From IMG/VR virus record IMGVR_UViG_3300027774_000001, positions 1 to 51,315 of that record: a DNA stretch of 51,315 bases. One strand, 5' to 3'. Every line of letters begins with the position of its first letter. Within the stretch, counting starts at the first letter, position 1. The translations under genes and the position numbers were made by a program. The stretch is from a virus (taxonomy: Duplodnaviria > Caudoviricetes). This document shows positions 5,672-44,900 of this stretch, piece by piece. Below the pieces are notes generated by a model. That model was not told the origin of the DNA. It saw only the letters and a program-made list of their open reading frames with translations, and made no database searches.

Positions 5672-5997
5672 TAGATGTGCACCTCTTCTACTTTTAATTT
5701 ATCTTTATCTACTTTTACAAATAGATTGTGATCACATGCATGATTTATGATGCCCTGTAGATCAAATGATTCTTCATCAGGACAATTAAATTTATCTGGA
5801 GGAATAGCATAAAATTCTTCAAACACAACTTTATCTTTGCTGTCTTTCCATTGTAAAACATAACGGAAACATCCATTAGTCCCTAATACTTTTTTGTTTT
5901 TAATAACTGTTAACTTGATAGCATCATCATACTCTTTACTAGGCACGCTAGGAAGAGATGTTTCTTCACCAAAAATAGTTGTGTCAGAGTTAATCAT
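5671..5997 (-). CDS. Hypothetical protein
   Basis: 108-aa ORF with stop/start overlaps on both sides (ATGA at 5994-5997, shared base at 5671), consistent with translational coupling. Confidence 0.65.
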   Translation of the reverse strand: MINSDTTIFGEETSLPSVPSKEYDDAIKLTVIKNKKVLGTNGCFRYVLQWKDSKDKVVFEEFYAIPPDKFNCPDEESFDLQGIINHACDHNLFVKVDKDKLKVEEVHI

Positions 5998-6932
5998 TTT
6001 ACGTAGTATGCTCCATAGTTGAAATAGTCACCACCAGAACTGTTCCAGAAAGCAGCGTTCTGATAGTTTGCACCATTACCGCCCCAGAAACTTCCAGACC
6101 AACATGCTCCATACCACCATGGTGCTCTGTTGTATAAGTTGGCACAGTTAGCACCATATACGTCTTGGTCTCTATCAGTAGTAGTAAAGTTGTATCCGTT
6201 ATTAATATGATATGACCAAACGCCAGGTGTGCCTCCTAACTCTACGTTCAAGTTTGATTCACCAACCCAGTCATAGTTGGTTCCCCAACCAGTCCAAGTC
6301 CATCTTGCTCTCTTAGAGTGAGATCCAGTAGATCCTAATGGAACTGGAGATCCCGCAACGTAGAATACGACATTTCTTCCTACATTATTATTTGCTGCAA
6401 TGTCATTCCAAGCATTTAATCCTGCCCAAAGTGTATATTGTTTAGGATCTCCAGATCCATATACACCACCATTAGCATACCATTGAGTAGAGGTTGCTGC
6501 CTGAGCATATGTCAATGCACCAATACTAACATTAAATGGATGACTTCCAACAAGACTCCATCCACCACCATCATATACTGTGTCAATCCATACTTGTTTA
6601 GGAGTACCACCAACTTGAACCCAATACCATCCTGTAGAAGGATTAGCAAGAGCAGTCATAACATCAGTTGCTTTTGCAAGTGCCTTTTCAGCAGAACTTC
6701 CGTCTGGTTTTTCTTCCCCTATCGCAATCCATTTTACTCCAGTATACGCTTCAAATCTACCTAACTCACTGTTCCAACCTATCTGTCCTATCTCACCCGA
6801 AGGTCTAGTAGATGTTGTCCATTCTGGTAATTTTATTGTGCCATCAATTCTTAGTTGATGACCATTAGGTAATCTAACATTATTAGCATAGGTTGATAAA
6901 CCCTGTATATCGTGAACGTTAATTGTGCTCAT
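5994..6932 (-). CDS. Fibrinogen C-terminal (FReD)-like domain virion/receptor-binding protein
   Basis: GWYWV....VWIDTVYDGGGWSLV and FTTTDRDQD...NCANLYNRAPWWYGACW match fibrinogen-domain motifs (GGGW; FST.DRDND..NCA...WWY..C). The N-terminus carries the fibre motif LP.WTT.TRP..G.IGWN....FE.Y.G..W. Confidence 0.8.
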   Translation of the reverse strand: MSTINVHDIQGLSTYANNVRLPNGHQLRIDGTIKLPEWTTSTRPSGEIGQIGWNSELGRFEAYTGVKWIAIGEEKPDGSSAEKALAKATDVMTALANPSTGWYWVQVGGTPKQVWIDTVYDGGGWSLVGSHPFNVSIGALTYAQAATSTQWYANGGVYGSGDPKQYTLWAGLNAWNDIAANNNVGRNVVFYVAGSPVPLGSTGSHSKRARWTWTGWGTNYDWVGESNLNVELGGTPGVWSYHINNGYNFTTTDRDQDVYGANCANLYNRAPWWYGACWSGSFWGGNGANYQNAAFWNSSGGDYFNYGAYYVK

Positions 6933-9900
6933 TTATACTACACTCCAAGAACCACCGTTATTAACTGTTATGGTGACACCATTATTTATAGTGATAGGAC
7001 CAGCGGACATACAGTTATCTCCGTTGTTAACACTAATGTTTTCATTAACACTATTACGGTTTCTCCTAAAGACTCCGTATGTATCAATCCATAACTTGTC
7101 TCCACCAGCTCTTAATACTGTTGACTTCTGACCAGATGATAGACCCTCAGATGCATTTATGTTAATACCATTTAACTGATTAACTTGGATACCATATGTT
7201 GTCTGTGATTGATCACTTCCTGAGTAAATTGTCCAAGTACCACTACCTGTAAGTGAACCAATACCAGTGTCATTATCACTTCTAAAGAAGTAGGCATCAC
7301 CTGTTCTGAAGTATGTATGACTATTGTTAGAGAAGTAGAATCTGTCCTGACCACCATCATCTTGAATCCATACGTTAACTCTTCCTTGTAAGTATGGAAG
7401 ACCTAATGCAGTATAACCATCAAGTAAATCTGCGTTAAGATTAGGACATACAGTTGTAGAAGTAACAGAGATTGGTGCAGTACCAGTTGCGATGCTAGAT
7501 GAAATTTGTTTCTCAGTTCTTAATACTTCCTTGATTGTTACACCACCATCTCCTCTAAGATGCATACCCTCAATAGGTGTACCATTAGTATCAACTCTAA
7601 AACGAATAGCAGCAGAAGAATTAGCAAGACCAGTGTATACCTGATCAAAGTAGAAGTCTCCAACGCTATTGTCATAACGCATTAAGAAACCTTCACTTGT
7701 GCTATTTGCTTGACCAGTAAATCTAATCTGAGGATCAGCATTATTGTTAGTGCTAGATGTTCCTGCAGTAATTCTAAGTTCAGCAGTTGATCCACTATCA
7801 CTGTAAAGGTGAAGTAGTGTGCTTGGATTATTTGCCTGATTACCAATACCTACACTCTCACCTCTCATTACTAGAGTGGTGTTAGTAGCACTGGTTCCAT
7901 AATACATATAGGTTCCACTATATCCAAAGTATTTGGAGTCACTACCAAATCTTATAAAACCTTCAGATGATGAATTCTTACCTTGAATTGCTAATGTATT
8001 TGTAGCAGACTTACCAAGAGTAATACCATTGCCATCTGCAAGACTTAATGTTCCTGCACCGTTGTTAGTGAAGAAACCTTGATCACCATGAAGATCATTA
8101 ACATATAAGTGTCCTGATGAGTCTCTACGTGCAATTGTGTTACCTGTAGCACCCGCAGACTGAACATAACCATCTAAGTAATGAGCGTCTAGTTGAGATG
8201 ATATACCATCGTTTCCACTATGCCATACTGTGTTACCGTTAAAGGTAAAGTCTGCAGCGTTAAATCTGATTGTTCCATTACCATCTGTGCCATTACCACC
8301 AGAGACGATCATTTGAACGTCATAGTTTGGTGCCTGACCAGATGATCTAAAGTCTATTGTTGGTGTTGTAGATACTGTTGCTTTACCAATCTGTAACTTA
8401 GCACCATTTGCATTATCACGTAATCCAATAATTGTGCTAGATCCACCAGAGATCTTGTTAGATGATGATACTGTCCATTTTGTGCCAGGATTAGGACCGA
8501 AGACATATATGTTTGCGTTAGTGTTATTACCAACAAATGCTATCGTACCAGTTACAAGTGAATATATTTCACCAGTGCTATGTGTAAGTTCTTGAACACC
8601 ACCAGATGAATCAACTACGATTGAACCAATGTTGTTTGTTGCACCTACGTCAGAGTAGATAGTGTAAGTTCCACCATTGTTGATGTTACCACCAACACCA
8701 CTATTACAATGGAAATCAGGAATGTATAGTGTAAATTTATTACCTGTGTCATTAACAAAGAAGTTCTCAAAGACCATCTTGTTTTGACCAAGAACTTCTG
8801 GTAAGAACATGTCACCAATAGGTGCTGTGATACCACCACGTGTGTCACCTATGTTGTAACCTGTCTGATACCATAGACCTTGTTTTCCATCCATCTTGTC
8901 GGAATCAAGACCACTTCCTGCACCTTGATTAGATTCTGACCAGATCTTGAACCAGTTAGAGTAAACTGCAAGACCACCGCCATTACCTCTGATGTAAAGA
9001 TTGTTATTATCTGTAAATCCTAATTGTGTAGAAGCATTACCTGTTGCTTCTCTTCTGTATGTTACGACACCATGTGTAGAACCACCATCATTAAGACCAT
9101 CAGCACTGTTGTTTCTAAGTGCAGCAGCAACACCATTAGCTGCAGCAGCAGGAGCAGGGTTTGATGTGAGTGATGCAGTCTCGTTAAAGATTCTGTTTGC
9201 AGTGTCAGCAGTACCAGATATTGATATATTGTATGTGGTGTTTGCAAGTCTTGCGGGGTCTAATGTACCGAATACTATATTGTTTGCTGTCTGATAGAAT
9301 GAACCATCGTTACCATCAAGTTTGTCAGCGTTAAGTTCAGATCCTGCACCTTGGTCAATAGAAACATTACCATTGTTGTCAATAATAAATCCACCTTGAT
9401 CTTGGTTACCAACCGCTTGGTTCGTTACATCTTTTCTAAATCTGAATACACCGTAGTTACCATAAACAGAGGAACTTGCTGTTAGGTTATTACCTTTTCT
9501 AATATCAACTTCGATGTTACCATAGTAACGATTGATTGTTCCTTTATTAGCAGCAAGTATAGCACCGTTACCACCACCAAGTTCACTTGGTATTACAACT
9601 GAGAAATCACCTGTGTATCCTGTACCTGAGTCAGTAACAGTTGCAGATGTAATAGTTCCGCCAGATACAATATATGTTGCACGAGCAACGTTGTCACTAC
9701 TAATGGATATGTTACCACCGTCCATCGGTATGTTCTGGTAAGTTCCGTTTGTATATCCTGTACCACCGTTAGTAATTGTAATCGTGTCAATGTAACTACT
9801 ATCTGATAGAGAACCACCAATAACCATTGCATCTTGTGTAGTAGCTCTGATTGCTTGTAATGCATACTCCCATGATGAGTCACCACGTAAGAAACTGAAT

Positions 9901-12900
9901 GAGTTTGCAGCACCTTTACTTGCTAATCTTTCTGGGTCAATGATACCCGCAACAATGTTAGAAGCATCAATGTTTGTTGATGTTAACTGTGTCCAGTTTG
10001 CAGCGTTAGATGCAGATGTATTGATAACTCTGGAAAGGTCAATGATTCTCTTCCTTGCCATGTTACCACTATTGGTTCCACTAGAAGGTGAAGTTACAGA
10101 ATACTGATTAGAGTTAATAAGTGATATGGTGTAGAAACCATCAGACGCACCACCACTTGTAAAGTCAATAAACGCTAGTGCAGCGTTAGATAAACCGTGT
10201 GAGTTTTCAGTGATAGTAATTGTAGTGCCACTTTGACTGTAAGTACCTGTGCCTTCATTGACTAAACCTTGATCTAGTATAAAGTCACCCGCGTCAAACT
10301 TAATATTATTTGCAATCGCAATACTTACACGTGCTTCTATTTGTGCAACAACAATCGCTGTAGTTCCAGATGACACTGCTGCTTGAACAGTTGGTTGAGT
10401 GTAGTAACCTTTACCACCATTTGTGATAGTAACTTTAGTTACTGATCCGTTAACAACGTTTGCTGTAGCAACTGCTTGAACACCATTTACTGTGTCATCA
10501 GGTGCAGAGATTGTAAGAGGGAAGTCTCCAGTGTAACTATCACCCGCATTTGAGATTACGAAGTTGAATATTGTTCCATCATTGTAATCACTTACAGTAC
10601 CACGAGCAGTTGTAGAACTACCAACAATAATATCACCATTGCTAAATGTAAATGCATTGTTGGGAGTAAATGCTAAGAACTGAGATTCTAAATCATTCTC
10701 AAGAATATATGATATTGCAACACCCTGTGTCTTGAACTGATGAGTTCCAGAACCTTGAGATAATAAATCAATTGCTTGTCCACCACTAGCATTAGATTCA
10801 GTAGTAGCAAGTTTGATGGTATTGTCATCTACCTTAATAACATAGTAATCTACACCAGTTCCTAATCCACCTATTGCAGATGTTCCTTGTGTATATGTTA
10901 ATAGATCACCAGTATTGGTTCCATGTGATGCAATTGTAATCTGATCATTAGATGTATTGACTGATGCAGATGCAACGTTGAATGTTGTTGCTGTTGTTTC
11001 AATCGCAATGTCACCCGCGTTAGCATCTTCGATAGCAAGTCTCTCTGCTGTAGATGCAACAGATGTAATATTAAATGGACGTAATGCAGGAATCTGGTCA
11101 ATGTTAATCTTACCAGATGATGTTAACTGAACAAGAGCAGATGGAACTGCGTTTGTAGAGTATGGTTGGTTGAGGTAAGGTCCTAAGTTGTTTGAAATAT
11201 AATCTCTAACTGATGCCTGTGTAGGTAGTAAACTATCGGATGCAAATGTTCCACCTAAGTTATCATCTTGTGAGAATCCTGTAATTGTGATGTCACCACC
11301 AACAATCTTAATAGATGATAGTTCAGAGATACTAACTGTTCCAACGAAACTGATAGCACCAGTTCTGTTGAAGATCGTAACAAAGTTACCAACTTTAAAG
11401 TCACCAAACTCGTTAGTTCCTGATGTATAAACTTGTCCGAATGATTGTTCTGCTGCCTCAAATGCAGTTCCCTGTCCAACACCACCGTTCTGTGGTAACG
11501 CAGCGTAGGTATTACCTGATCCTGCATATTCCCAAGTGTGTGATGATGAGTTAACAACAGATGGTCTGTGGAATCTAATTGTCTTATTAAGAAGATTGCT
11601 TAATGGTAAACTTCCTGCAGCAAATGATGGATCATTACTTGATTGATAACGGTTACTTCCATCAGAGAAGTCCATTGCACGGTTAGTTGTTATCTTAGCA
11701 ACAATCTGTGTGCCAGGTGTACCAGAAATAACTTCTGTTTCTAGAATAATGTGCTCAACAGCAGGGTCGGAAGATGTGTAACCATCAATCTTGATGATAT
11801 AATCTTCAATAGGTATACCTGTTAGTGTTGTACCAGATACCTGTATAACCTGTCTTCCTGTAGGAACTCCATTACCATCCGTGTCATCTGTAATAGAATC
11901 AATAACACCAACGTCAAATGAATATGCCTCTGCCCTAAATCCTGTTGCTCTTAGAGCAAATGTTCCGAAGTTAGATGCTGAGTTAGTAACTGATGCATAA
12001 CCACCAGACTGACATAAGATACCATCTTGACAGAAGATAGCAAACACTGACACCAACTGGGTGTAACCATCATTGGTGACGTTATATGCAGTACCACCAA
12101 AACATATAATGGTGAATGCGTTCGCAACCATGGATTTACCCTGTGGGTCAAACTGTGCAACAGTAGCACCTTGTGCATTCTGTTTTAAGCCAGGTCTAGG
12201 AACGTTAGGTGTAGCAACTTTAGCACCGTCAATCTCACAACCAGAACCACCAAGGAATGATATAAGTGAAGAGTTCTGGATATATGGTGATGCTTCAATA
12301 ACTGGAAGATCTAGGAATGTACTTACAAGTGGGAATGAATATTTGCTTTGATCTTGTTCTGTAATCAGAGGATCAGGATTTGTTACTGTTCCACCATACG
12401 CATTACCACTAGACAATACGTTATCAAGAATACCCCAGTTTGTAACTAATGCAGATACAACGTTAGCACACTCAGGTGCGGATGAGTCTACAGTAATAGA
12501 ACCATTTGATCTAGGTGCTATTTGTGAGAATTGTCCCACTTCTAAATTATTTCTTATTGCGTCTATTGCTAATTCTTTTGCTGCAGCAAATATTGCACGG
12601 GTATATGTGACTTCAGTTGCAACGTGTTGAACACCACTAGCACCAGAAATGTATAAGTTTGCTGCCTCGACAATCTTAGAGTTACCGCCATAACGCAAGT
12701 CATACTGGAATGCTCTGGTAATCTTAACAACGTCATCAATACATTGTTGATCGCCAGGTGCAGTTGTTCTTGTTACACCTGATACAGATCCTGCTGTAGT
12801 ACCACTTCCTAACGCTGTTGTAACAGTGTCAAAGAAGGTTGTAATTGATGAGATAACGTTTGCACAAGAAGGAGTTGTTGCAACTGTTCTAGTCGCATGT

Positions 12901-15900
12901 GACATGTTATCGTTAGCGATAGCAGTGTCAATAATTGTGAAGAATCCATCTACTAGATTTGATTCTACAGATGTTCCTTTATTGACGTTATCAGTAACCT
13001 GAGTAAATCCATGATTACCCTCTACTGTAACAGTTTGACTCTCTAAAACTTGTTTTGCAATTGTGTTGACTAATGCAAATACAGCACGTGATTCTGTCTC
13101 CTCTCCATCTAAGAAAGTAGAGTTTGTATATAATTCAGCAGCATCATAAACTTGCTCGTTACCACCATATGCTAGGTTGTATACAACAGTACGTAATACA
13201 TCTAGAGCGTCATCAATACAGTTTTGATTTCCGCCAGGCACATTATGTGATGGGTTATCTATGTTGTATTGTTGAACTGCCTCAAATGCAATGAACTCAA
13301 GGTTCTTTTGTATAAGAGTTGCAGCGTCACGACGAACTGTTCCTGCACCTGTGTCTAAGGTTGCATTATGATAATACTGTAATTTTGTAGCATAGGTTGA
13401 TCTGTATATTGGTAGATTTCTTCCTGCTAAGATACAAGCATCTTTTGCATTGTTGAATACCTCTACGTAACGATCTCTAGTTAATGAGAAACCAGGATCA
13501 ATATAGAATTTTGCTTGATCGTATACTCTATCATTACCACCCCACTTGAGGTTATGTGCTACACATTTTTGTATAAAGTCTCTGACGTCATCGTAACATG
13601 CTGTGCTTCCTGTGGGAATAGTATAACCACTATTATTAGCAAGCATCTTATTGACTGCATAGTCTGCAATCATGTCTGCGTTACCAAATAGTAACTCAGC
13701 AACATCACCATACTTGTTATCTTGTGGAAGACTGTTAGGTGTTCTAAATGGTTTTTGTAGATCTGTAAATGTACCGCCAGTTCCAGATTGTCCTGCAGCA
13801 GCAGTTGACCCAAGATCTATTGAGAACTCTCTGTCATCATAAATGTCTGCAAGACCATGAGTTCCATTTACAGTAGCGTTACCAGATCCTGTAATAGTTA
13901 CTTGAGATGTTAATGCTTTTTTAACTGAGTTAGTTCCTGCACTTACAAAGTAATGTGTTGAGGTATCAGATGATATACCAACATCAACGGTAAATGTATT
14001 GGTTGTTTTTGATTTAATTTTTAACCACTTATCAAATGCAGGGTCACCACCTCTAGGATAAGGATGTTGTGTTGCACGAGAGTCGGTGTCGCACTCCATT
14101 ACGATTGCACCCGCATCAAACTTAATTAGATCTCCTACTTGGAATCCATGACCATTGATAGTTACTACAAAGTTACCGTTGCCAGGTGTGTACGATGCAT
14201 TGGTAGGTGTGTGTTGACTGAAACTAGGATATAAGTTATGTCCTTTCTGAATCTTGATTGTTGCAGTTTCACCACTTACTGACCATTCTGTAATGCTCCT
14301 TGCTACTGTATCTGAGGTTTGTCCAAAGTTTGTTCCACCAATAGTAAGTGCGTTATTACGAGTAAGGGATGATTCATAATAATATTTGACATATGCTGTT
14401 GCTTCCTGTGCAATAAACTCTTGGTTATTCTTAATATTTTCAGCACCATCTCTAAATCTGTCATCTTGATTGATGGCAGTAAATCCATAAGGTGAGTTAC
14501 GTAGAGATGCTAGAACATAGTTGTTAGAACCAACAACAGACTGGTCACCAGTTGGGTTAATAGAAGCACCAATCTCGGATATGTTTGCTCTTACAACAAA
14601 CTGTAGTGAGAAACCGTCAGCACGTTCTATACGATGTGTAATATATTTTCTACCATTAAGATCTTCTAAGTTGTTAAGAATAGAGACGCCAGTTCCAGAA
14701 GATGTTGTTACATCACTAGCAGTATCAATATTTGCTTGCTTTAAGACAAATGTGATTGTAGTATTAGAACTATTGTATCTTGCATGACCTAAACCTAAAT
14801 CTGAGTTATTAGGTAATGTTGGAGTACCAGACCCTACAGTAAATGAATTGATGTGATATGTTTTACTGAATCTAGAATCCGCACCAGTAAAGTTAAATGT
14901 GATACCAGCTTCACCTAGTGTCTGCCAATTTCCAAACAGTGCACTAGTAAGAGAGTTATCTACACCTGTAACTGTAACGGTGATTAAACCACCACTGATA
15001 GTGTAACTGCTGTTAGTAGATGTACCAAAATTTAAAGCACTATTTTGGAAACCGTAGATATTAACTTCTTGTCCAACTTCATAATCATGGAAATCAGATG
15101 ATGCAGCAGAAGTTGCTAAAGTAAAGATAGGACCGTTATAGGTTGCTATAGTGTTTAATGAAGTGTCAATAGTAGTAATTGACAATAATTTATTCTGTAA
15201 ATCAAATCTATGGAATCCTTTTCCTGCAGATGTTAGAGGTAATGTTACTGGATTGTCAGCACCTGATGCATCTTTTTGAGTTGCGTTAGCAGCAGATGAT
15301 GCAAGTCTAAACCAGTTATTACTTTCTTTGTATACAAAGTATGCAGTACCGTCAACAAGACCACCGATGCCACCCATCTTGCTTTCACGATAGACAACAC
15401 CATCTCCAGTTATAAACTGATGATTTGTAACATAGATGTGATTGTCTTCAAACATCACATTACCAGTTGTCAACTGGTGGAACTTAGTATCAGGAGACAC
15501 ACCTGTAAGATCTTTTTTACCCTGAGTTATGCTAGTGTTAGCAATAGCATTTACCTCTAGATCGTATAATTCAATAGTATCGTTATCTACCTTTCTTACC
15601 CAATAACGTGTGCCATCAATTAAACCTGGCAATGGATTTGTATTCTCATCCTTTTCATACAATACGTTATCACCAGTTACAAAACCGTGTGCAGTAATTG
15701 TAATTCTATCTGTTGTTGTATCAACTCTTGTAGAGTCAGCAGAGAAAGATACTGTTTCTCTCTCACTGTCAATAGTGTGCTGATAGATCTGGTTAGAGAT
15801 TGTCTCAAGTTCTGGTCTTAATGACTCAGCATCTACAACGTCAAATCTTTGTGACACACTAGGATTATTAATGTCAGTAATAATATTTGCTGCTACAGCA

Positions 15901-17273
15901 TCATAGAATATTTTCTCAGCGTCTTGGAATACATCATTTACACCAGATGTAACCAATATTGTCACACTACCAGTTGAGTATGGTGATGCTACAGGACCTG
16001 TGAAATTGACTCCTTGAATTGTACCGAGTGTACCAGATGATCCACCTTGTACAAAGTAACCTACTTGTAAGGTTGTATTATTACCTGTGTGGTTGTTAAA
16101 TGTAACACTAAAGATGTTATCACCACGGAATTTATCGCCAGGTACTGAAGGAATTTGTTCTACTTCTGGTTCGTAATATAATCTTTGTTTGTCATCGAAC
16201 ACAAACGCAAATTTCCAAGTATGAATTACTGTACTTTGTGGGTCTGATGCGTTCTGTAATGCGTCTCTGAATACAACACCGAAGATGTATGTTTCGTTAG
16301 ACGCCTTGATCATGTGACGATCTTGGTTAGCTGGTCTAAGAATTACTCGTCTTAAGTTGTCACCAACAAGTGAACAGTTTCTAGGTAGTGATATTGGGTT
16401 ATCTTCTAGATACTCACCACCAGATACAATAATAGTTACGTATTCATCACTTGCATCAGGTGTTGCTTTCTGCAAACCATATGCAATCTGTGCTGCTTTC
16501 TTAACAGTTTTTACTGGTCTTGCAGCTGAACGACCATCATTTTCATCACTACCGATAGTTTGTGATACATATACACGACCACCAGTGTCATTAGTAGCAA
16601 CTTTATATACAAAGTCAGTGGTAGCAACCCTTCTAGACTGATCACTTAGAGGTGGTGTGTCCGCTTGTGGGAAGAATGTTGTGCCAAAAGTAGGACTTGT
16701 GACGTCTGTATCTTCAAAGTTGACAAGGTTTGGAGCACGAAGATTCAACGCAGGGTTGATGATCGTGTCAATATCAAGGTTTGTAACCTGTGCAGTATCA
16801 GAAATGATAGAACGAGTCGTTCTAATCTGTCCTTCTACGTCTAGCTCAAACTGAGGATCGTTAGTATTGATACCAACCCTAACGTTTTCCTGTGCATTTT
16901 TATCAATGTATATTGCATCTTTCTCTAGAGAACCAGTTCCTACTGAGATTTCTAGTGTCTCATCTCCTTGAATACTTAATGAACGAACTCTTTTATATGC
17001 TAGAGTCGCACCCGCTGTAATTACACTATTTGCTGAACCTACAAAACTTAAATTATCATCATCTACCTTAGTTACTACATACTCTCCATCTACCTCACCA
17101 CCACTTGTGAAGTCAATGTAAAATTTATCTGTCCCTACAATACCATGAGCAACCGAAACGATATTACCCACACCCGCTGCAGTTCTACTGTACGTGGCGT
17201 TAGTCCAATTTCCTGTCGCTTTAGTCCCGCTAGCTTCAATTCGCTGTTGGTCAGTATTAATCTGAAAACTCAT
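6933..17273 (-). CDS. Giant modular tail fibre/virion structural protein (3446 aa)
   Basis: Contains a split pectin-lyase-like beta-helix (VYVS..GSD.NDG....P..TV..A; SPYIQNSS), HG-containing beta repeats, helical C-x-DD...YGGN modules, G.GY repeats, four L(N/D)xDxLDG-type fibre repeats and a C-terminal MSAGPITI...GGSWSVV motif. AAGGA RBS upstream. Confidence 0.85.
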   Translation of the reverse strand: MSFQINTDQQRIEASGTKATGNWTNATYSRTAAGVGNIVSVAHGIVGTDKFYIDFTSGGEVDGEYVVTKVDDDNLSFVGSANSVITAGATLAYKRVRSLSIQGDETLEISVGTGSLEKDAIYIDKNAQENVRVGINTNDPQFELDVEGQIRTTRSIISDTAQVTNLDIDTIINPALNLRAPNLVNFEDTDVTSPTFGTTFFPQADTPPLSDQSRRVATTDFVYKVATNDTGGRVYVSQTIGSDENDGRSAARPVKTVKKAAQIAYGLQKATPDASDEYVTIIVSGGEYLEDNPISLPRNCSLVGDNLRRVILRPANQDRHMIKASNETYIFGVVFRDALQNASDPQSTVIHTWKFAFVFDDKQRLYYEPEVEQIPSVPGDKFRGDNIFSVTFNNHTGNNTTLQVGYFVQGGSSGTLGTIQGVNFTGPVASPYSTGSVTILVTSGVNDVFQDAEKIFYDAVAANIITDINNPSVSQRFDVVDAESLRPELETISNQIYQHTIDSERETVSFSADSTRVDTTTDRITITAHGFVTGDNVLYEKDENTNPLPGLIDGTRYWVRKVDNDTIELYDLEVNAIANTSITQGKKDLTGVSPDTKFHQLTTGNVMFEDNHIYVTNHQFITGDGVVYRESKMGGIGGLVDGTAYFVYKESNNWFRLASSAANATQKDASGADNPVTLPLTSAGKGFHRFDLQNKLLSITTIDTSLNTIATYNGPIFTLATSAASSDFHDYEVGQEVNIYGFQNSALNFGTSTNSSYTISGGLITVTVTGVDNSLTSALFGNWQTLGEAGITFNFTGADSRFSKTYHINSFTVGSGTPTLPNNSDLGLGHARYNSSNTTITFVLKQANIDTASDVTTSSGTGVSILNNLEDLNGRKYITHRIERADGFSLQFVVRANISEIGASINPTGDQSVVGSNNYVLASLRNSPYGFTAINQDDRFRDGAENIKNNQEFIAQEATAYVKYYYESSLTRNNALTIGGTNFGQTSDTVARSITEWSVSGETATIKIQKGHNLYPSFSQHTPTNASYTPGNGNFVVTINGHGFQVGDLIKFDAGAIVMECDTDSRATQHPYPRGGDPAFDKWLKIKSKTTNTFTVDVGISSDTSTHYFVSAGTNSVKKALTSQVTITGSGNATVNGTHGLADIYDDREFSIDLGSTAAAGQSGTGGTFTDLQKPFRTPNSLPQDNKYGDVAELLFGNADMIADYAVNKMLANNSGYTIPTGSTACYDDVRDFIQKCVAHNLKWGGNDRVYDQAKFYIDPGFSLTRDRYVEVFNNAKDACILAGRNLPIYRSTYATKLQYYHNATLDTGAGTVRRDAATLIQKNLEFIAFEAVQQYNIDNPSHNVPGGNQNCIDDALDVLRTVVYNLAYGGNEQVYDAAELYTNSTFLDGEETESRAVFALVNTIAKQVLESQTVTVEGNHGFTQVTDNVNKGTSVESNLVDGFFTIIDTAIANDNMSHATRTVATTPSCANVISSITTFFDTVTTALGSGTTAGSVSGVTRTTAPGDQQCIDDVVKITRAFQYDLRYGGNSKIVEAANLYISGASGVQHVATEVTYTRAIFAAAKELAIDAIRNNLEVGQFSQIAPRSNGSITVDSSAPECANVVSALVTNWGILDNVLSSGNAYGGTVTNPDPLITEQDQSKYSFPLVSTFLDLPVIEASPYIQNSSLISFLGGSGCEIDGAKVATPNVPRPGLKQNAQGATVAQFDPQGKSMVANAFTIICFGGTAYNVTNDGYTQLVSVFAIFCQDGILCQSGGYASVTNSASNFGTFALRATGFRAEAYSFDVGVIDSITDDTDGNGVPTGRQVIQVSGTTLTGIPIEDYIIKIDGYTSSDPAVEHIILETEVISGTPGTQIVAKITTNRAMDFSDGSNRYQSSNDPSFAAGSLPLSNLLNKTIRFHRPSVVNSSSHTWEYAGSGNTYAALPQNGGVGQGTAFEAAEQSFGQVYTSGTNEFGDFKVGNFVTIFNRTGAISFVGTVSISELSSIKIVGGDITITGFSQDDNLGGTFASDSLLPTQASVRDYISNNLGPYLNQPYSTNAVPSALVQLTSSGKINIDQIPALRPFNITSVASTAERLAIEDANAGDIAIETTATTFNVASASVNTSNDQITIASHGTNTGDLLTYTQGTSAIGGLGTGVDYYVIKVDDNTIKLATTESNASGGQAIDLLSQGSGTHQFKTQGVAISYILENDLESQFLAFTPNNAFTFSNGDIIVGSSTTARGTVSDYNDGTIFNFVISNAGDSYTGDFPLTISAPDDTVNGVQAVATANVVNGSVTKVTITNGGKGYYTQPTVQAAVSSGTTAIVVAQIEARVSIAIANNIKFDAGDFILDQGLVNEGTGTYSQSGTTITITENSHGLSNAALAFIDFTSGGASDGFYTISLINSNQYSVTSPSSGTNSGNMARKRIIDLSRVINTSASNAANWTQLTSTNIDASNIVAGIIDPERLASKGAANSFSFLRGDSSWEYALQAIRATTQDAMVIGGSLSDSSYIDTITITNGGTGYTNGTYQNIPMDGGNISISSDNVARATYIVSGGTITSATVTDSGTGYTGDFSVVIPSELGGGNGAILAANKGTINRYYGNIEVDIRKGNNLTASSSVYGNYGVFRFRKDVTNQAVGNQDQGGFIIDNNGNVSIDQGAGSELNADKLDGNDGSFYQTANNIVFGTLDPARLANTTYNISISGTADTANRIFNETASLTSNPAPAAAANGVAAALRNNSADGLNDGGSTHGVVTYRREATGNASTQLGFTDNNNLYIRGNGGGLAVYSNWFKIWSESNQGAGSGLDSDKMDGKQGLWYQTGYNIGDTRGGITAPIGDMFLPEVLGQNKMVFENFFVNDTGNKFTLYIPDFHCNSGVGGNINNGGTYTIYSDVGATNNIGSIVVDSSGGVQELTHSTGEIYSLVTGTIAFVGNNTNANIYVFGPNPGTKWTVSSSNKISGGSSTIIGLRDNANGAKLQIGKATVSTTPTIDFRSSGQAPNYDVQMIVSGGNGTDGNGTIRFNAADFTFNGNTVWHSGNDGISSQLDAHYLDGYVQSAGATGNTIARRDSSGHLYVNDLHGDQGFFTNNGAGTLSLADGNGITLGKSATNTLAIQGKNSSSEGFIRFGSDSKYFGYSGTYMYYGTSATNTTLVMRGESVGIGNQANNPSTLLHLYSDSGSTAELRITAGTSSTNNNADPQIRFTGQANSTSEGFLMRYDNSVGDFYFDQVYTGLANSSAAIRFRVDTNGTPIEGMHLRGDGGVTIKEVLRTEKQISSSIATGTAPISVTSTTVCPNLNADLLDGYTALGLPYLQGRVNVWIQDDGGQDRFYFSNNSHTYFRTGDAYFFRSDNDTGIGSLTGSGTWTIYSGSDQSQTTYGIQVNQLNGININASEGLSSGQKSTVLRAGGDKLWIDTYGVFRRNRNSVNENISVNNGDNCMSAGPITINNGVTITVNNGGSWSVV

Positions 17274-35924: not shown

Positions 35925-35932
35925 TATTTATA
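35925..35932 (-). promoter_or_regulatory. T4 late promoter TATAAATA
   Basis: Exact consensus; overlaps the gp7 stop (35928-35930) and lies about 22 nt before the gp8 ATG. Confidence 0.7.
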
Positions 35933-38900
35933 ATGATCTCAGACGAACTTCTGGGCAAACACTGGTGTTTCCGCTTGTTGTCCGCGAGAATGGAAACTCT
36001 ACAGTAAATGTATTGCTTCCAGTAACGGTAACTGTGTAAGTTCCGTTGATTCCATCACCACTACCAGATCCAATATCAAAGTCTAAGACTACTCTCTGAC
36101 CTGTAGTGAAATTGTGGTTAGATGATGTAGAAACTGTACATGTGGTTCCTGACGAATTATATGTACCAGTCAATACTGTATGAACTGATGCTGTAGTTCC
36201 TTCATGTCCTCTACCATTTGTAGCGACTGTTAATGTATTTGATGAAGTGTTTTTAGATGCATACAATATTCTTTCACATGACCAAACTTGTTCAACAGTA
36301 TTGTAGAATGGAACTAATACCTCACCTTCGTCAGGGAATCCATTTTTCTGTGTAGAATTAAAGTATACATTTTTTAGATTTAATGTAGTTCCACTAGATG
36401 ATAATGTGGATGTCAAATATGTTATACCAAGTGACAGTGAGTTGGATAAAATTCTATCTCTTTGTCTTCTTTCTAGTGCTAGAGGATGCACAGCAATAAC
36501 AGTCGGTGCACTGGTATATCCAGCTCCACCCTTTAGATTTATAACTGATAAAACCTTACCACTTCCAGTCTCAATAGTAGTCTCAGCAGACGCACCATCT
36601 CCACCTCCACCTTGGAATAATAGGATAGGTGGAACCTCATAGTTAGATCCTACATTTGTTATATTGACCTGTGTTACTTGTCCGCCAGTAACGACTGCTG
36701 TAAATTCTGCAGTGCTTGGTTTTAGACCTGTATACTCGTAACTGTCAATAGTAGTAGAACTTGATACAGTAGCAACTAAACGATCTGAACCCTCACTAGA
36801 GATCTTAACTCTGTCGCCAGGATCTATAGAGTTGAATGTATTGCTTATCAATATATCGTTTGGACTACCTGTGTAGATGAATAGAATACAATCAGATCCT
36901 GCTCTAGGTGCTTCGCTAAACTCAATGATAGATCCTGTCAATGTATATGCAACGCCAGGTTCTTGATATACACCATTTAAGAATATGAGTAAGTTGTTTT
37001 GTGCTTGTACAGCAGCGTTATCACTTTCTAATGAGAATGGTTCAGTATTCTCTTTCATGGTAAATGTCTTTTTCTTATTATCAAAGAATGGTTCAATAGC
37101 ATCTAACTGTGTTAATTTACCAAAGTAGAATCCATAGAAGTCCATACCCGCTAGAGGTGCCTCAGTAAATGTAATTGTACTACCTGTGTAATTGTATGCC
37201 TTAGAACTACCCTTAATCTGTAAGGTGCTGTTCAAGAAAATTAAGAAGTTATCATTTGCGGGCAATACTTGTGTTGATCCACCAGACAGTGTGGTAAATG
37301 TAGTATCACTACCATCAAATGTTACATCACCAACGTTTATCTGGAAGAATGGTTGTACTGACGCTGTTCTGGTAATACCATTTAAGTTACCACTATTAGT
37401 TCCAACATTTACTGTGATTGTTGTCGCTGTAACCGCAGTAATAGCAACTGCTGTATTATATGCAGGATCGCTTGTTCGTGGGTAAGTATGGTTCGTTGCA
37501 TTGTTATCATTGGCACATGTGAATGTCATTGAGTTGGCAGAGATTGTCACTGTATCACTTGTTGTAAGTGAGTGAGATCCAATCGTCATCTCCATGAGAC
37601 CTGTAGTATTGTCGTATGTTGTTGGAGCAACAGCAGTGAAAGGTCCGCTACCACCACCAGTAACTGTGATGTTATTAGATGTGGAACTTACGAATGTGTG
37701 AGCACCAGTTCCTACTGCCTGAGTTACAATCGCCCATAATGTAGATATTGTTGATGCAGTATCGACACAGCATGCCTCAGAGTATGTTGTGCTACCAGAG
37801 TCATTACTAATTGTATTGTCTTTGATTTGTGTACCAACAGTGTCACCATTTGTAGTAACTGTAAGGTTACGCATAACCTGACGACAAATATCTCTAGCAT
37901 GATTGAATACCTGTACAGACTCACCTTCTTCACCATCTAGATGAACAGTTCCAACATAGAAATTAGCAGCATCATATGTTGCATCGTTTCCACCAAATTC
38001 TACGTTATCTGCAACTGCATCTATTAGTAATTTTGTATCACGAATACACTTGGTCTTGTAGATGCCAGAGAATGATGGGTTGTCTGCTTGCATTCTACCA
38101 TATGCAGTTGTAGCAATAAATTCTTGATTGAGTCTAAGTAGATTTCCTGCATCTGCAACTTTGCTATACTTATATACACCATAACTGACAACTGCTCGTG
38201 TGACAGCTGTAGAAGTGGCACTCACAAATGTATGTGTTGATGTATCAGATGATACACCTACGTTGACTGTAAATGTATCTGCAGTTACAGCGTCAATAGT
38301 ATGCCATGCACCTTCTGATGGATCTCCAACTCTAGGATATGTGTGCTGTGTAGCATTGTTGTCTAGACCACATGTAAATGTTAATGAGTTATTAGCAAAG
38401 AATATTCTGTCACCTTTGATTAATGGATGACCAGTTACTGTCAAGACCATTTCACCTGTGCTAGGTGTGTAAGTAATATCTGATGGTTGGAATTGGTATG
38501 TTGACAATCCTTGCCATGCGTGTGTGTCAGTGTTTGTAGGTGATGTTCCGTTTAATGCATTGACTGTAATCGTAGTGCTTGTTACCGCCTCAACTGGTAC
38601 ATCTTTCATCTTACCTTGTGTACCGATTGGGTCAGTAGCACGTGGATATGCTGCTGTACCACCACTACCATAGTTGCAACTAAATCTCAATGACTCATTA
38701 GCAATCCTTACTGTAGATATTGCAAACTTAACGCCATTTGATGCTGCCGATATGAATACATGTGGACTTAGATCAGTAGAAGGAATACTATCAAGAACTT
38801 GTACTGTAAATGTATTAGTAGTGCAATCAAATGCTTCTAACCATCTATCTGATGCATAGTCTGTAGAACGAGGATATGATTCATTACCTCCACCACCGTA

Positions 38901-41900
38901 ATTACAACTAAATGTCAATGAACCATCTGCAAACTTAACAAAATCACCATTGACACGTCCGTGGTTGTTAATAGTTACCACCATCAAACCAGTATTAGGA
39001 TCGTATGTTGCATCTGAAGGTGTATGTGTTGTAGGTGCAGATAAACCATGACCAGATCCTATGGTCAATACCATCTCACCAGATGTAGGAGCATATGTTC
39101 CATTTGTAGGAAGGAAATGCTTGACTAGTTGCTCTCCAACACGAGGATCAGATATACCTAGTACATCTGTATCAGTGTATCCATTACCCGCAGAGACTAA
39201 TGTAACATTTGATACTGCACCATTTGTAACTGTGATGTCAGCAGTTGCACCGATACCAGAACCTAATCTATTCTTAAGTGGTACTGCAGTATATGTACCA
39301 TCACTATAACCTGAGCCAGGTGTAAGACCATTTGCAACATCAAAGGATTTTATCTCATCACCAATCTGATCTAGTACAAACGAAGTAGTATAATCTGCAC
39401 GATCAAAATACATTGCAATAACTCTAGTCTCTGCTAATGGAGGTGTGATAAATGTTACAATGTTATTTGACAGTGTATATGTTGCAGGGTTTGCAATCAA
39501 TCCATTTACAGATAATAATAGTTGTGTGTTAGATGCAGTTTTACCAATTTGAGTATTGAGATCAACACCATTGACTCTTAACTTAAATGAGTCATTGATA
39601 CCATCTATAAAACATCTCAATGAGTGTCCTACACCTGATCCTTGAGATGTAAGGTTGATGTCAGCACCACCCTCTGTCAATGATAGTCTTATTGTATTAG
39701 CATCTACAATCTTAACGTAATATTTTGCAGCGTTTGTAAGTCCACCAATAGGAGTTCCAGATCTATTGTTAGGATAGTTACCAATATCTAATGATGGTAA
39801 CGCAGCAGTTGGATTTGATATAGCACCTGTAACTATTCCTGCAAATACAGTAATTGCACTCTTGACATCTGCACAACCGCCAGAATCGTTTGTAATACTT
39901 AAGTCTGTCTGTGGCACTATGTTTGTATATGTGCCTACTGGAAGATCATTTGTAACTGCTAGTAGACATAAATCTCTTGCCTTGTTAAATGCATATATTG
40001 TCTCTGTTTCTTCACCAGCTACGTGTTGTACACCAGTTCCATCTGTGTATGACTGTGCAGCATCTATACTAAAGTAATTACCACCATACTTAAGATCATT
40101 AGTCCATGCAGCAACTACAAGTCTAGTATCTCTAGCACATTTTGCCTGACCATACTGTAATGTTGGATATTGTGCATTTAGGAATCCAATAGTTTCTTCT
40201 ACAATATAATCAATATTGTTTACAATTAAATCTCTAGCATCTAAGAATCTATCTCCACCAGAGAAATAAGTTACCTGTTGTCCTTCTACAAGTCCATGAT
40301 TAGTGATTGTGATTTTGTCATCTACACCATCTACAACAGCAGTGCTAGATCCATCAAATGTTAAAGTTCTATCACTAATATCATCAATCTTATATGAGAT
40401 ACAAGATAAGATCTTCTGAACGTCTAATAACTGTTTTCCGTAGATAGAAACCTCTGTAGGAACCAATGCACTATAATCTGGTTTTGATAAAGCAAAGTTA
40501 TTAATCTGTGATAACTTACCAGTTGCTTTAGCAGATGGTTTTGGTGTTATAAATGTCGTGCCATTGAAAGTAGTTCCAATACTGTTTGTATTTGGCACCC
40601 ACCAGTCAAATGTGTTACTTGGGTTTAAGTTAAGTGTAGATCTAGGTCTAAAGTCTTTCTTGACTGATTGTGTCAATACTTGTGTACCAACAACTTTAAA
40701 TCCTGCAGGGTGTGCTGCAAACTTGAGTGGATTCTTCCAATCTGTGATGTTTATAGGTGATGATATATCATAAGAGAATTCTTGGAACCTATTACTGTCA
40801 TATACACGTTGTTCGTTAAGATCTAGGAATCCAGTGGTCTTCTCCCAGTTTGCTGCAGATGTACTAATAGGTGAAACGACAAATTCTGCATCTGCTCTAT
40901 CAAACGCATGTATTTGACCAAACGCTGCTGATTCTTCACCAAATACAGGTTGACCTACTACAAAGTCACCTTCTACAAGTTCTACACTAACAACACGACC
41001 AGATGCGTCCCAATCCTTGATAAATCCAAATGCAGTAAAGGATGTAGTAGATGCACCTTGATATATCCTTTCTCCGATAGCAAAAGTAGCGGGTTTGGTA
41101 TATGCAATAATATTGTCACCTAAGTCTGTTGTCTCAACTGTAAAGTATGTTTGACCAGTTACAGGATCACCTATAGGAGCACTTGTAAATGTTATTGTAG
41201 TCTCAGTGTTAGCATTGGCAAGACTAGTTGCTAGTTTTATCTGACTATCTGCTAAACCATTAGCAGTTGTTGCTGCAACAGCAAAGTAAGTTGTTTCTGT
41301 CTGTAATGGTGAAGGAAGTAATCCTGATGTCTCTACAAGTGTTACTTTTGTTCCTGTTGGTATTTTTGCATTATATGGGAAGTTTATTGTACTGTTTGAC
41401 TGTAATGCTACAAATGTGTGACTAACCTTTGCTCTTACCGTTGGTGATGACGTAAATCCTCTACCCGCATTTTCTACATTAACTGCCTGTATAATTTCGT
41501 TTTGGACTATTGGTTTTAAGTCAAATAATGAACCTTGACCACCCTCTAGTATAATCTCAGGTGTAGATACAAAGTTTGCACCACCATTTACCACATCAAG
41601 GTAATCAATGATCTGAGTTCTGATTAATTGTAAATTATAAGTTGTGTTTAACTTAGGTTTAAGTGTTCTATCGTGACTATAGTTAAATGTAATGTTTTCA
41701 CCACCAATCTTAAGTATCTCTCCCATATTTGATGATTTGAGAAGTATAGATGCACCAGTTCCAAGTCTTTGTTCAATATTAATAATTGGAGGACTTTGAT
41801 ATTGTTGTCCTGCTGCCAATATGTTGATTGATACTACACCTTCATTCAATATTAGTGCATTCAATGATGCATTGATACCATTACCACCTTGTGCTGTAAT

Positions 41901-44900
41901 ATTAGGTGCAGAGAGATAACCAGATCCTTGGTTAGTAACAGTAACAGAGTCTATTGATGCATCTAACAATGTTTCTGTTGTTGCTACATCTGTAAATGTC
42001 ATTGTTGCAGGTTTTAGAACTGCGTCGTCTGCTCCATCGGATCCACCTAGGTCAGCACCAGAGATTGTAATTTCGTCAGCAATATTATATGATGTGCCAC
42101 CATCTGTTACTGTTACAGACTCAATAGTTCCGTTACCATCAGTTACCACAGTGAATACTGCACCACTAGCACTAGTTCCTGCTATTGATTTTTGTTGAAC
42201 ACCTGTATATGTTTGAGATGATCCGTAGTTTGTTGAAGATTGAGTCTTAACTGAGACAGTTGAGATTATACCGTAGTATGGGTCATCAAACAATATCTGA
42301 GGAGCAGCTCTATAGTTTGTTCCTGCACCTGTAACATTAACCTCTGATACTTTACCCGCACCAGATACTGCTGCAGCGACTGTTGCCTGTGATCCACTTA
42401 TACTCTCGATAGTTGCTACAGAGTTTCCACCTGTGTAAACTAAAGAACGAATATTAAATGACTGTGTGCCAGTTCCAGAATTGGTTATGGTGATTGCCGT
42501 ACCCACCTCTGCTAACTGTGGTGTAAGTGCTAACTTCACACGTCCTGCATCACCTATGTTGATTACATAGTAAGTTTCTCCAACAACCATATTACTGATT
42601 GGGTTAGTCTCAGCTGAGACATATTTGACTGGATCTCCTGTTTTTGCATCATGGACTGGAAACTCAAACTGATCATCGTATCCTACTGCGTCAATTTGTG
42701 ATGGGTTTATATTGTATGTCTTACCCGCATTAAACATGATATATCCTTTCTGACCCGCACCTGTTCTAGTGTTCTGTAATGGTTGTAGTCTTAATACTGA
42801 TGTAATTGGGTTCCAGTTAATAACTTTACCTCTAGCAGTGTTATTATCTTGGATTGCCTTACCAATGATGATTTCGTCTGGTAAGAAGTTACCTAATACG
42901 TTTTCTAGAGTCACATCTACAAAATCAGGCATTGTAACAACACAAGTGGGCAATGCTGCAGGATTATATCCAGATCCATTGTTTGTTATTGATACATTAG
43001 ATAATCCACCAGAAATAGTCGCTATGGCAGTAGCACCTGATCCAGATCTAGTAGAACCGCTTAATTTAGGTAATGATTGGTAGTTTCTTCCACTATCACC
43101 AATTGTTATGGTTGCAATACCTCCAGTTGGGTATACTGAGTTTGTAGAGTAAGTTAATCCGACACTATAACCAGTTTCGGGTGCTGCAGCAAGTTTATAG
43201 GTAAATGAAGTGTCAGTTTTCGATATAACTGTATGTGTCCCTAATATTGGGTCATTGATGATTGTAAAATACCTACTATTGGTTACATCACTCTTAATTG
43301 TGATTGCGTTACCCATATAAGCGTGGTTTTGACAAACATAGTGTAATGTGTCAGGAGAAGTGACTGAAGGTGTAATAGAAACGCTTCTAGTAGTCGCACT
43401 TGCAAAATTAGAATTATAATCATCCCAAGAAACCACATCTCCGTTAATTCTGTAAACAACTCCTACCTCATACCTAAGAACACCACCATATGCGTCCTCA
43501 CTCTCAGAGAAGTAGATAGCATGTGTAGCATTTGATACATTACTTTGATCAAATGTATAAGTCAATCCACGAGACATTGTGATTGATGGAGATTGCTCAA
43601 GAGAACCATACTTATCGCCTGTCATCCAATATCCGTTACCAGATCCTTGACCGAATAGAGGATGATCTGTTGTTTTAGGTTGAACTGAAACTGTAAATGC
43701 GTTTGGTGCAGTAATTTGATGTTTTACATCGTGATAGTAGAAAATGCCAGGTAATTCTGTTATTTTTGTTGTAATTGAATTTTGTTCGTTAGTTATAGGG
43801 TCTCTAGACTCTTCAATAATGTTTTTGTAAGTAAAGATGTCTGTATTTGCAGGATCAAGTGTAAATGACAATACTTTACCAGTATTACTTGCATCAGATG
43901 TGTCAAACACATATGAGTGACCATCTATTACTGATAGATTTGGTTCTTTGACGTAAACGTCTGCAGGATTGCCACCATTACCTGTTGTAACATTTGCTGA
44001 AGTGGTAGAAGCAAAGTTTCTCTTGACAATAAACCTATTGAGTGAGTCTATCCTATCTACGATGTAATTTGCCTTATTATAAGACACAGGTGAGACACCT
44101 GAGATATTGACTAGAGATCCTACACCTAGTTGATGAGCATTATTTGTCTTACACTCTACCTCTCTTACAACTTGTGTCAATGTGATGAGGAATCCTGCAC
44201 CACTTGGGTTGTTTCCTACGTTAAGATTGTCAACACTAATCTGATCTCCAACATCATACCCAAATCCAAAGTCTGTAATTGTAATTGCTTGAACAGCACC
44301 ACTACCAATAACTATAGTTGCTTTAGCATCCTTACCATCTCCTGTTGATGATACTAATGGAACGTTTGAGTAAGTTCCGTCTAGGTAATTAGATCCTCCT
44401 GAGTTTGTAGTCCACCCATTTTGATATAAGTTACCATCTGTACGTATTCTTATAAACTCCCATTGCATTGCTCCGTCAGATGCTACTCCTGATGTATGTG
44501 TAGGTGCATTCGTTCCAGATGTTCCTGCAGGATGCACTGCTCTATACACTCTATTTGCAACATGTACTAGATCTCCAGTAGTATATGAAGAAGTGGTTGC
44601 GTATGGGTCTAACAACTTCATACTTACTAGATTAAAGTATTTGAAGTGATAGTTACCATTGATAACTTTACTTGTTAAAGATCTAGTATTGGAATTATCA
44701 GTTGTGGATATATTAATAATATCTCCCGCTTGTAGTAAATGTGCCTCAGCAGTAGTGACAACTCCGTAGTATAAGTCTAAACCTTCTACAGATACTGAAG
44801 CGTACACACTAGCAAGACTACTTACAGTTGTTCCTTCTACTTGTGCTACGACAGCACTAACACCTTCTCCGCCAGTTCCTGTATTGTCAAACTGCAATCG

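Follow-up and report, generated by a model that had tools for sequence, protein, structure and literature searches.

Phycobiliprotein beta subunits (CpeB, CpcB and the cryptophyte beta chains; PF00502) are the closest described relatives of the domains reported here from the tail proteins of a virus. Each is a free antenna subunit of 160-185 amino acids (aa), in which N-terminal X/Y helices of the alpha-beta dimer precede a globin domain running from beta-33 to the C-terminus, with a first chromophore site formed by Cys82/84 and Asp85/87 and a second by Cys153/155/158 and Asp39. In phycocyanin the two beta bilins lie 38.7 Å apart. Beta-Asp39 is described as binding the pyrrole nitrogens of the beta-153 bilin (PMC6614406), and T-type lyases as serving the beta-153 position (PMC10452541). 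Globins with a C-x-R-D motif also exist outside the ordinary alpha/beta assembly, in the ApcE bilin domain and in BBAG-1 and BBAG-3, which bind bilins without lyases; BBAGs are bacterial proteins of pre-PcyA gene clusters, accompanied in non-phototrophs by heme oxygenase and bilin reductase (PMC10151467). Phages, for their part, carry the bilin-related auxiliary metabolic genes cpeT, pebS, pcyA, ho1 and hemO-pcyX. In the sections of the literature consulted these are assigned to support of host light harvesting or left unexplained, with no virion substrate proposed: one source calls what phage cpeT does unresolved and speaks of the role of pebS/pcyA as a mystery (PMC3037559), and another treats as open what bilin cassettes are for when the phage host is not phototrophic (PMC11480375). 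Here we analyse 51,315 nucleotides of Caudoviricetes DNA (IMG/VR record IMGVR_UViG_3300027774_000001, positions 1 to 51,315; hereafter the window), in which a tail-fibre-type protein of 3446 aa carries three phycobiliprotein-like modules, A, B and C, and a gp7-type baseplate wedge protein of 4232 aa carries two more, D and E.

Sequence profiles and predicted models together confirm these modules as phycobiliprotein-beta-derived globin domains within a phage tail protein, at a sequence identity to phycobiliproteins of about 20%. A hidden Markov model of the five window copies, a check proposed in a first-pass annotation of the window, matched 48 PDB sequences at E<=10, all of them phycobiliproteins or a derived fluorescent protein. 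In the best match, phycoerythrin beta (E=5.6e-4), the first Cys aligns with the beta-82 bilin site and the C-terminal Cys with the beta-158 site. The best E value improved to 1.4e-5 with a 30-copy profile; the five-copy alignment was too divergent for use in the locus scan. Simpler searches returned less: PF00502 matched marginally at aa 1311-1373 (E=1.2e-4; 22.5 bits, curated cut-off 22.2), the same Pfam scan gave no PF00502 match in the 4232-aa protein, a single-sequence search of PDB sequences with module C found nothing useful, and the ESM Atlas held no match above 0.79 and no model. In AlphaFold models, module C superposes on residues 33-177 of phycoerythrin beta (Z 16.6, rmsd 2.0 Å, 132 residues aligned) and on the ApcE bilin domain (Z 14.3), and the top eight of 48,161 chains in a structure search belonged to the phycobiliprotein family, followed by photocobilins and sensor globins. 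These matches centre on module C, modules A and B having no separate match. The top Foldseek rows for a model of the 691-aa nested region (Uba1, dynein and UBR4) had an rmsd above 20 Å and were set aside as artefacts.

The phage modules lack the X/Y dimer helices, sequence and structure matches alike beginning at beta 33-37. In the model of window positions 12783-13727, residues of module B fill the X/Y range that C is missing in several alignments (model 9-271 to phycoerythrin beta 5-184); adjacent modules might in this way stand in for the dimer partner, or the overlap might be an alignment artefact. Unlike the free antenna subunit, the modules are internal to the 3446- and 4232-aa open reading frames (ORFs) and, across the family, are embedded, repeated and nested in virion proteins of 1000-7000 aa; short database matches look like fragments. 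The loop before the first Cys is seven residues shorter than in beta subunits, and A, B and C have C-x-D-D at the first site. A module works like a phycobiliprotein beta globin, yet strictly speaking it falls outside the family, because it has no X/Y helices, is not a free subunit and, in A, B and C, reads C-x-D-D. From BBAGs the modules differ in being viral, in lying inside structural proteins, in including one class with the beta-155 site and, in the one cassette read, in not adjoining the bilin genes.

The first-pass annotation had read A, B and C as an A[B[C]] insertion, and the split halves prove complementary. Scored against a profile built from intact copies only, the two parts of A cover model positions 1-28 (15.6 bits) and 35-149 (99.4 bits), and those of B cover positions 2-111 (93.5 bits) and, in the last helix, 123-149 (20.5 bits); of 263 control windows taken elsewhere in the 3446-aa protein, the highest-scoring reached 7.6 bits, below all four. 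Module C used as a query finds B and the larger part of A in the same protein, as well as the intact D and E. Natural variants agree. Six of 52 homologues (P0039-42, P0044 and P0046) carry A around one intact B, without C, and when P0039 is compared with the B of the window, its residues 1087-1193 match (56/106) and its residues 1210-1237 match the stray helix (14/26), leaving module C as a single clean insert in the G-H loop of B, directly before the second Cys. In 15 of the 52 (P0022-36) the innermost module is split again by a further long insert, according to a profile seeded partly with joined rows. We regard the nesting as established at the level of sequence because the halves are complementary and the C-less relatives carry an intact B; each module would then refold around its inserts. 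The AlphaFold check proposed earlier held for the globin fold of C, while module A was poorly modelled and no direct view of B pairing with its last helix was obtained: the B[C] model (pLDDT 68, about 79 in the last helix of B) returned C-centred matches only in structure searches. A complex prediction joining the first helices of A to the rest of A (score 0.01, mark 0.32, without controls) was used neither for nor against the nesting.

The peptides and cysteine positions quoted in the annotation stand in the fibre ORF as given, and its count of about five bilin-site cysteines resolves into three of the first site (Cys1226, Cys1352 and Cys1511) and two of the second (Cys1470 and Cys1602), module C being without a second site; B holds additional cysteines. 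How these pockets are kept across the family was read from a profile search that returned 1244 representatives at E<=1e-3 among 1.84 billion, with residues counted in the best 150. In the 1462 copies of these 150 the first site retains Cys in 97%, Arg in 92% and Asp in 99%, the copies being otherwise divergent; C-x-R-D stands in 1303 of 1455 copies and C-x-D-D in 46. Class I, of cyanomyovirus type (48 proteins), has the second Cys in 192 of the 196 copies that cover the position, with C-x-R-D in 178/242 and C-x-D-D in 46/242. Class II (102 of the best 150 representatives) reads C-x-R-D in 1125/1182 copies and has no second Cys. Class II fibre proteins of the P0054 type hold up to 31 one-site C-x-R-D modules each, and no taxonomy was returned for ten of the top representative proteins.

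Copies retain the first Cys whether or not the second is present (both in 178/430 copies, the first only in 246/430), and with the 38.7 Å between the phycocyanin bilins this leads us to reject a disulfide between the two as the explanation. The column most associated with the second Cys is the Asp at the beta-39 position, found in 86/89 copies with that Cys and in 17/173 without, an association that is not independent because it is largely the difference between the classes. Among 20 orthologues of the fibre protein, A and B always have this Asp; module C, which lacks the second Cys, has Asp in 11 and Tyr in nine. All five bilin-site cysteines and all three D-D pairs are invariant in these orthologues, so that A, B and C read C-x-D-D in 20/20, as the annotation had noted for the window. 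Copies of this type are also present in S-PM2, Syn1, S-RSM4, Syn19, P-RSM4, P-SSM7, P-TIM40, S-CAM7 and S-SKS1 and therefore represent a conserved subclass rather than decay; the class has a P-x-G-N loop. The PGGN motif itself, which had been likened to the beta-subunit loop whose Asn is methylated by CpcM, occurs only in module C, where its Asn is invariant in 20/20 orthologues and the motif reads PGAN in two. Nothing besides the motif speaks for methylation, and the geometry of the loop is not the same, PGGN standing three residues before the Cys against ten in beta subunits (seven closer). Modules D and E, with canonical first sites and second cysteines, are better first targets than A, B and C for a bilin-binding assay.

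The module travels with a bilin lyase gene. A viral CpeT profile was compared with module matches in 27 phage genomes, nine of them selected with module presence known: both occur in 14, the module only in two, CpeT only in none and neither in 11. In 16 cyanomyoviruses selected blind to the module, seven have both and nine neither (Fisher p=9e-5), p-values that overstate independence because the genomes are related. The module was detected in P-SSM4, Syn1 and S-RSM4 and not in the myoviruses S-SM2, S-SSM7, P-TIM68, S-CAM9 and Bellamy. In S-PM2, Syn1, S-CAM1 and S-RSM4, the distance from cpeT to the first module match, downstream on the same strand, is 1.3-3.1 kb, and the second site retained by class I is of the beta-153 type. 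In work attributed to Gasper in 2017, phage CpeT reportedly bound phycoerythrobilin (PEB) and did not load host CpeB; we do not count this as evidence. Covalent bilin loading somewhere in the module family is the most economical account, because two chromophore pockets are conserved and the partner gene is of the type of a second-pocket lyase, and on these sequence grounds we predict it as probable. Bilin supply is less regular: in 14 cyanophage genomes six have module and bilin reductase, one the module only, two the reductase only and five neither (p=0.10, not significant). P-HM1 and P-HM2 encode PebS (PMC3037559), and S-PM2 would rely on host bilin. P-SSM2 (NC_006883) and S-SSM7 (NC_015287) carry a bilin reductase without module and without CpeT.

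The same residues bear on whether pigment is there at all. The modules could be pigment-free structural or spacer domains, with the cysteines serving for cross-links or metal binding, especially in the C-x-D-D copies; the Arg-to-Asp change in all three of A, B and C, the loss of the X/Y helices that help to form phycobiliprotein pockets and dimers, the tolerance of large inserts and the extra cysteines of B would all suit such a role. Scaffolding alone, however, has no need of a first site conserved to the extent seen in the family, of a coupling between Asp39 and Cys155, or of a CpeT limited to module-bearing genomes, and the two Cys sites are far apart in the phycobiliprotein fold. We therefore consider a pigment-free scaffold unlikely.

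Class II probably extends the family beyond cyanophages. One complete phage of 399,796 bases (G002) has 40 module matches, with module genes near 104-123 kb and 361-365 kb, and an adjacent heme oxygenase and bilin reductase (C1:339699-340905) about 20 kb from the nearest of them. No psbA or psbD was found in G002, and no S-type lyase was detected in it or in four fragments. Its bilin pair adjoins clpS-like, small heat-shock and dnaK genes, these three recognised by eye. A further 15 jumbo-phage contigs, incomplete, of one clade and eight of them selected for the reductase, include nine with the module, all nine with a bilin reductase: all eight chosen by reductase carry the module, and of the seven chosen by DnaK five have the reductase, one of these five the module, and two neither at threshold. 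Strict restriction to cyanophages is rejected by class II in G002, and the module is probably not confined to phages of phototrophs, a point that the annotation had proposed to check. The annotation had set against itself the case of modules in phages of non-phototrophic hosts lacking any bilin pathway; G002 is not such a case, because it carries heme oxygenase and bilin reductase. In a GTDB scan with module C, which reaches close relatives only, the one match came from an Acidimicrobiaceae metagenome-assembled genome, in a 42-kb contig that is probably binned phage DNA and whose module-bearing ORF spans at least 1995 aa.

This distribution also bears on mimicry, in which the modules would copy a host phycobiliprotein surface and bind a host protein (a receptor, phycobilisome debris or a lyase), pigmented or not. 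True homology to host antenna proteins and the location in a fibre agree with it, as do the matches in INPHARED, which among 50,697 records number 365 and 319 and all lie in records with cyanophage-type names. What is conserved, however, is the chromophore pockets, while the dimer helices are lost; the second class occurs in a phage without psbA/psbD; and phycobiliproteins are not on the cell surface. Mimicry is the least probable of the readings, and we think it very unlikely.

A function in adsorption would connect these features. In the mechanism that we propose, the modules would refold round their inserts, C in the G-H loop of B, and B with C in the loop after the first helices of A. Phage or host enzymes would produce PEB or phycocyanobilin during infection, and phage CpeT, as a T-type lyase of the beta-Cys153/155 kind, would load the second site (Cys and Asp39) of A, B, D and E. 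The C-x-R-D first site of D and E would load spontaneously or through a host S-type lyase, and at the C-x-D-D sites of A, B and C binding may be of another kind or absent. Once pigmented, fibre or baseplate would behave differently in light and so gate adsorption to the host. In published adsorption work, P-HM1 and P-HM2 fail to adsorb without light, adsorption of S-PM2 depends on light independently of host photosynthesis, and P-SSM2 and P-SSP7 adsorb in the dark; as candidates its authors put forward receptors or tail fibres that are sensitive to light (PMC6628666; 10.1101/167650). Module matches number 5-10 in each of P-HM1, P-HM2 and S-PM2, and none was detected in P-SSM2 or P-SSP7. Phenotype and module agree in five of five phages, a small sample in which two are near-identical and one is a podovirus. 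We hold the whole chain, light-gated adsorption included, as a tentative prediction with somewhat under an even chance. More tentative still is its general form, in which many T4-like cyanophages and the jumbo clade would build pigmented virions whose CpeT-loaded bilin arrays on the tails, fed by phage or host bilin synthesis, would be the light sensor behind the dark-blocked adsorption of P-HM1, P-HM2 and S-PM2.

Several observations weigh against light-gated adsorption, besides the limits of sampling and relatedness given with the counts above, the non-significant reductase comparison and the Asp that replaces the conserved Arg in A, B and C. P-SSM2, without modules, still adsorbs better in light (PMC6628666; 10.1101/167650). 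The phages B23 and S-SKS1 have modules with both cysteines and no detectable phage CpeT or CpeS; conversely, S-B68 and S-CBWM1 encode an S-type bilin lyase and gave no module match, and that lyase may act on a host protein or on a virion domain that has diverged further. Four reductase-positive jumbo fragments (30-44% complete) gave no module match. The 691-aa region was modelled by AlphaFold with low confidence (mean pLDDT 54.8, module A below 50), and one search turned up no virion proteomics for the P-HM1/P-HM2 counterpart of the fibre protein, so that its place in the particle is deduced from annotation and gene position. Switches of the phytochrome type use a C15=C16 double bond, which PEB does not have; since P-HM1 and P-HM2 encode PebS, a simple isomerisation switch is unlikely. 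As many as 31 copies in one protein suggest bulk pigment rather than a switch, and the BBAG holoproteins tested were photoinactive (PMC10151467).

The last points lead to a passive bilin, acting as a light screen, as a quencher of excited states or reactive oxygen on the tail apparatus, or as a bilin sink, with the light dependence set by a host receptor. The pocket and CpeT evidence fits this equally well, as do the copy numbers, the photoinert and weakly fluorescent related BBAGs (PMC10151467) and the 40 matches in a probable non-cyanophage. A DNA sunscreen would, however, be expected in the capsid and not in the fibre and baseplate of the attachment apparatus, and module presence follows the dark-adsorption phenotype in all five phages. 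A passive pigment is rather doubtful in our judgement, ranking after light-tuned adsorption and ahead of the pigment-free scaffold, with host mimicry last.

At the level of the domain we are dealing with a variant of the phycobiliprotein fold; at the level of the system, it is a virion protein with a phage lyase and a bilin supply. Neither a published precedent for that combination nor a description of the module was found in a literature search that covered few subscription journals and no bioRxiv supplements. Two old questions become testable in cultured phages, namely which substrate phage CpeT, PebS and PcyX serve and whether the phage itself bears the light sensor for dark-blocked adsorption. 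If the reading is right, free virus particles would carry a photoreceptor, bilin cassettes would be accounted for where the phage host is not phototrophic, and several genes hitherto assigned to photosynthesis support would instead serve virion maturation. The modules would also supply small dimer-free biliprotein domains able to take up large inserts.

Table 1. Modules, diagnostic residues and carrier proteins in the window
Feature	Position	Strand	Remark
Tail-fibre-type protein, 3446 aa, carrier of A, B, C	6933..17273	-	PHROG 5342
Module A first helices, aa 939-968	14370..14459	-	profile match; Asp942 = beta-Asp39 equivalent
Beta-strand insert within A, before B, aa 969-1186 (~220 aa)	13716..14369	-	length differs among relatives
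Module B helices to G-H loop, aa 1187-1310	13344..13715	-	profile match; Asp1190
Module B first-site C-x-D-D, Cys1226	13596-13598	-	
Module C, intact, aa 1311-1455	12909..13343	-	predicted phycoerythrin-beta globin fold; no second Cys
Module C PGGN	13227-13238	-	
Module C C-x-D-D, Cys1352	13218-13220	-	
Module B last helix, aa 1468-1491	12801..12872	-	profile match
Cys1470 in last helix of B	12864-12866	-	beta-Cys153/155/158 equivalent
Module A remainder, aa 1504-1623	12405..12764	-	profile match
Module A C-x-D-D, Cys1511	12741-12743	-	
Module A second-site Cys1602	12468-12470	-	
gp7-type baseplate wedge protein, 4232 aa, carrier of D, E	35928-48626	-	
Module D, intact	39810..40250	-	canonical C-A-R-D and second Cys; in 4232-aa baseplate protein
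Module E, intact	37704..38162	-	canonical C-I-R-D and second Cys; in 4232-aa baseplate protein

The window spans the part of a T4-like cyanomyovirus genome that encodes baseplate and fibres. It contains gp25, gp6, gp8 and the gp7-type protein, together with a number of giant structural ORFs on the minus strand. Its source is a marine T4-type cyanophage of the P-HM1/P-HM2 kind: the module region is 82% identical to that of P-HM2 and 70-71% to those of P-HM1 and MED4-213, and the P-HM1/P-HM2 counterparts of the fibre protein are named 'YapH protein' or 'tail fiber protein'. Fibre and baseplate proteins of T4-like cyanophages that carry the modules fall in PHROG 5342, 4527, 701, 18802 and 2885. 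No bilin gene was found among the 16 of 46 window ORFs of at least 80 aa that were scanned against families (the large minus-strand ones); genes outside the window were studied in relatives, because the source genome record consists of the 51-kb contig alone. Downstream of the fibre gene, two minus-strand stretches at 1235-2968 and 5994-6932 show weak matches to a methyltransferase family (PF13578, below cut-off) and to fibrinogen-C (PF00147).

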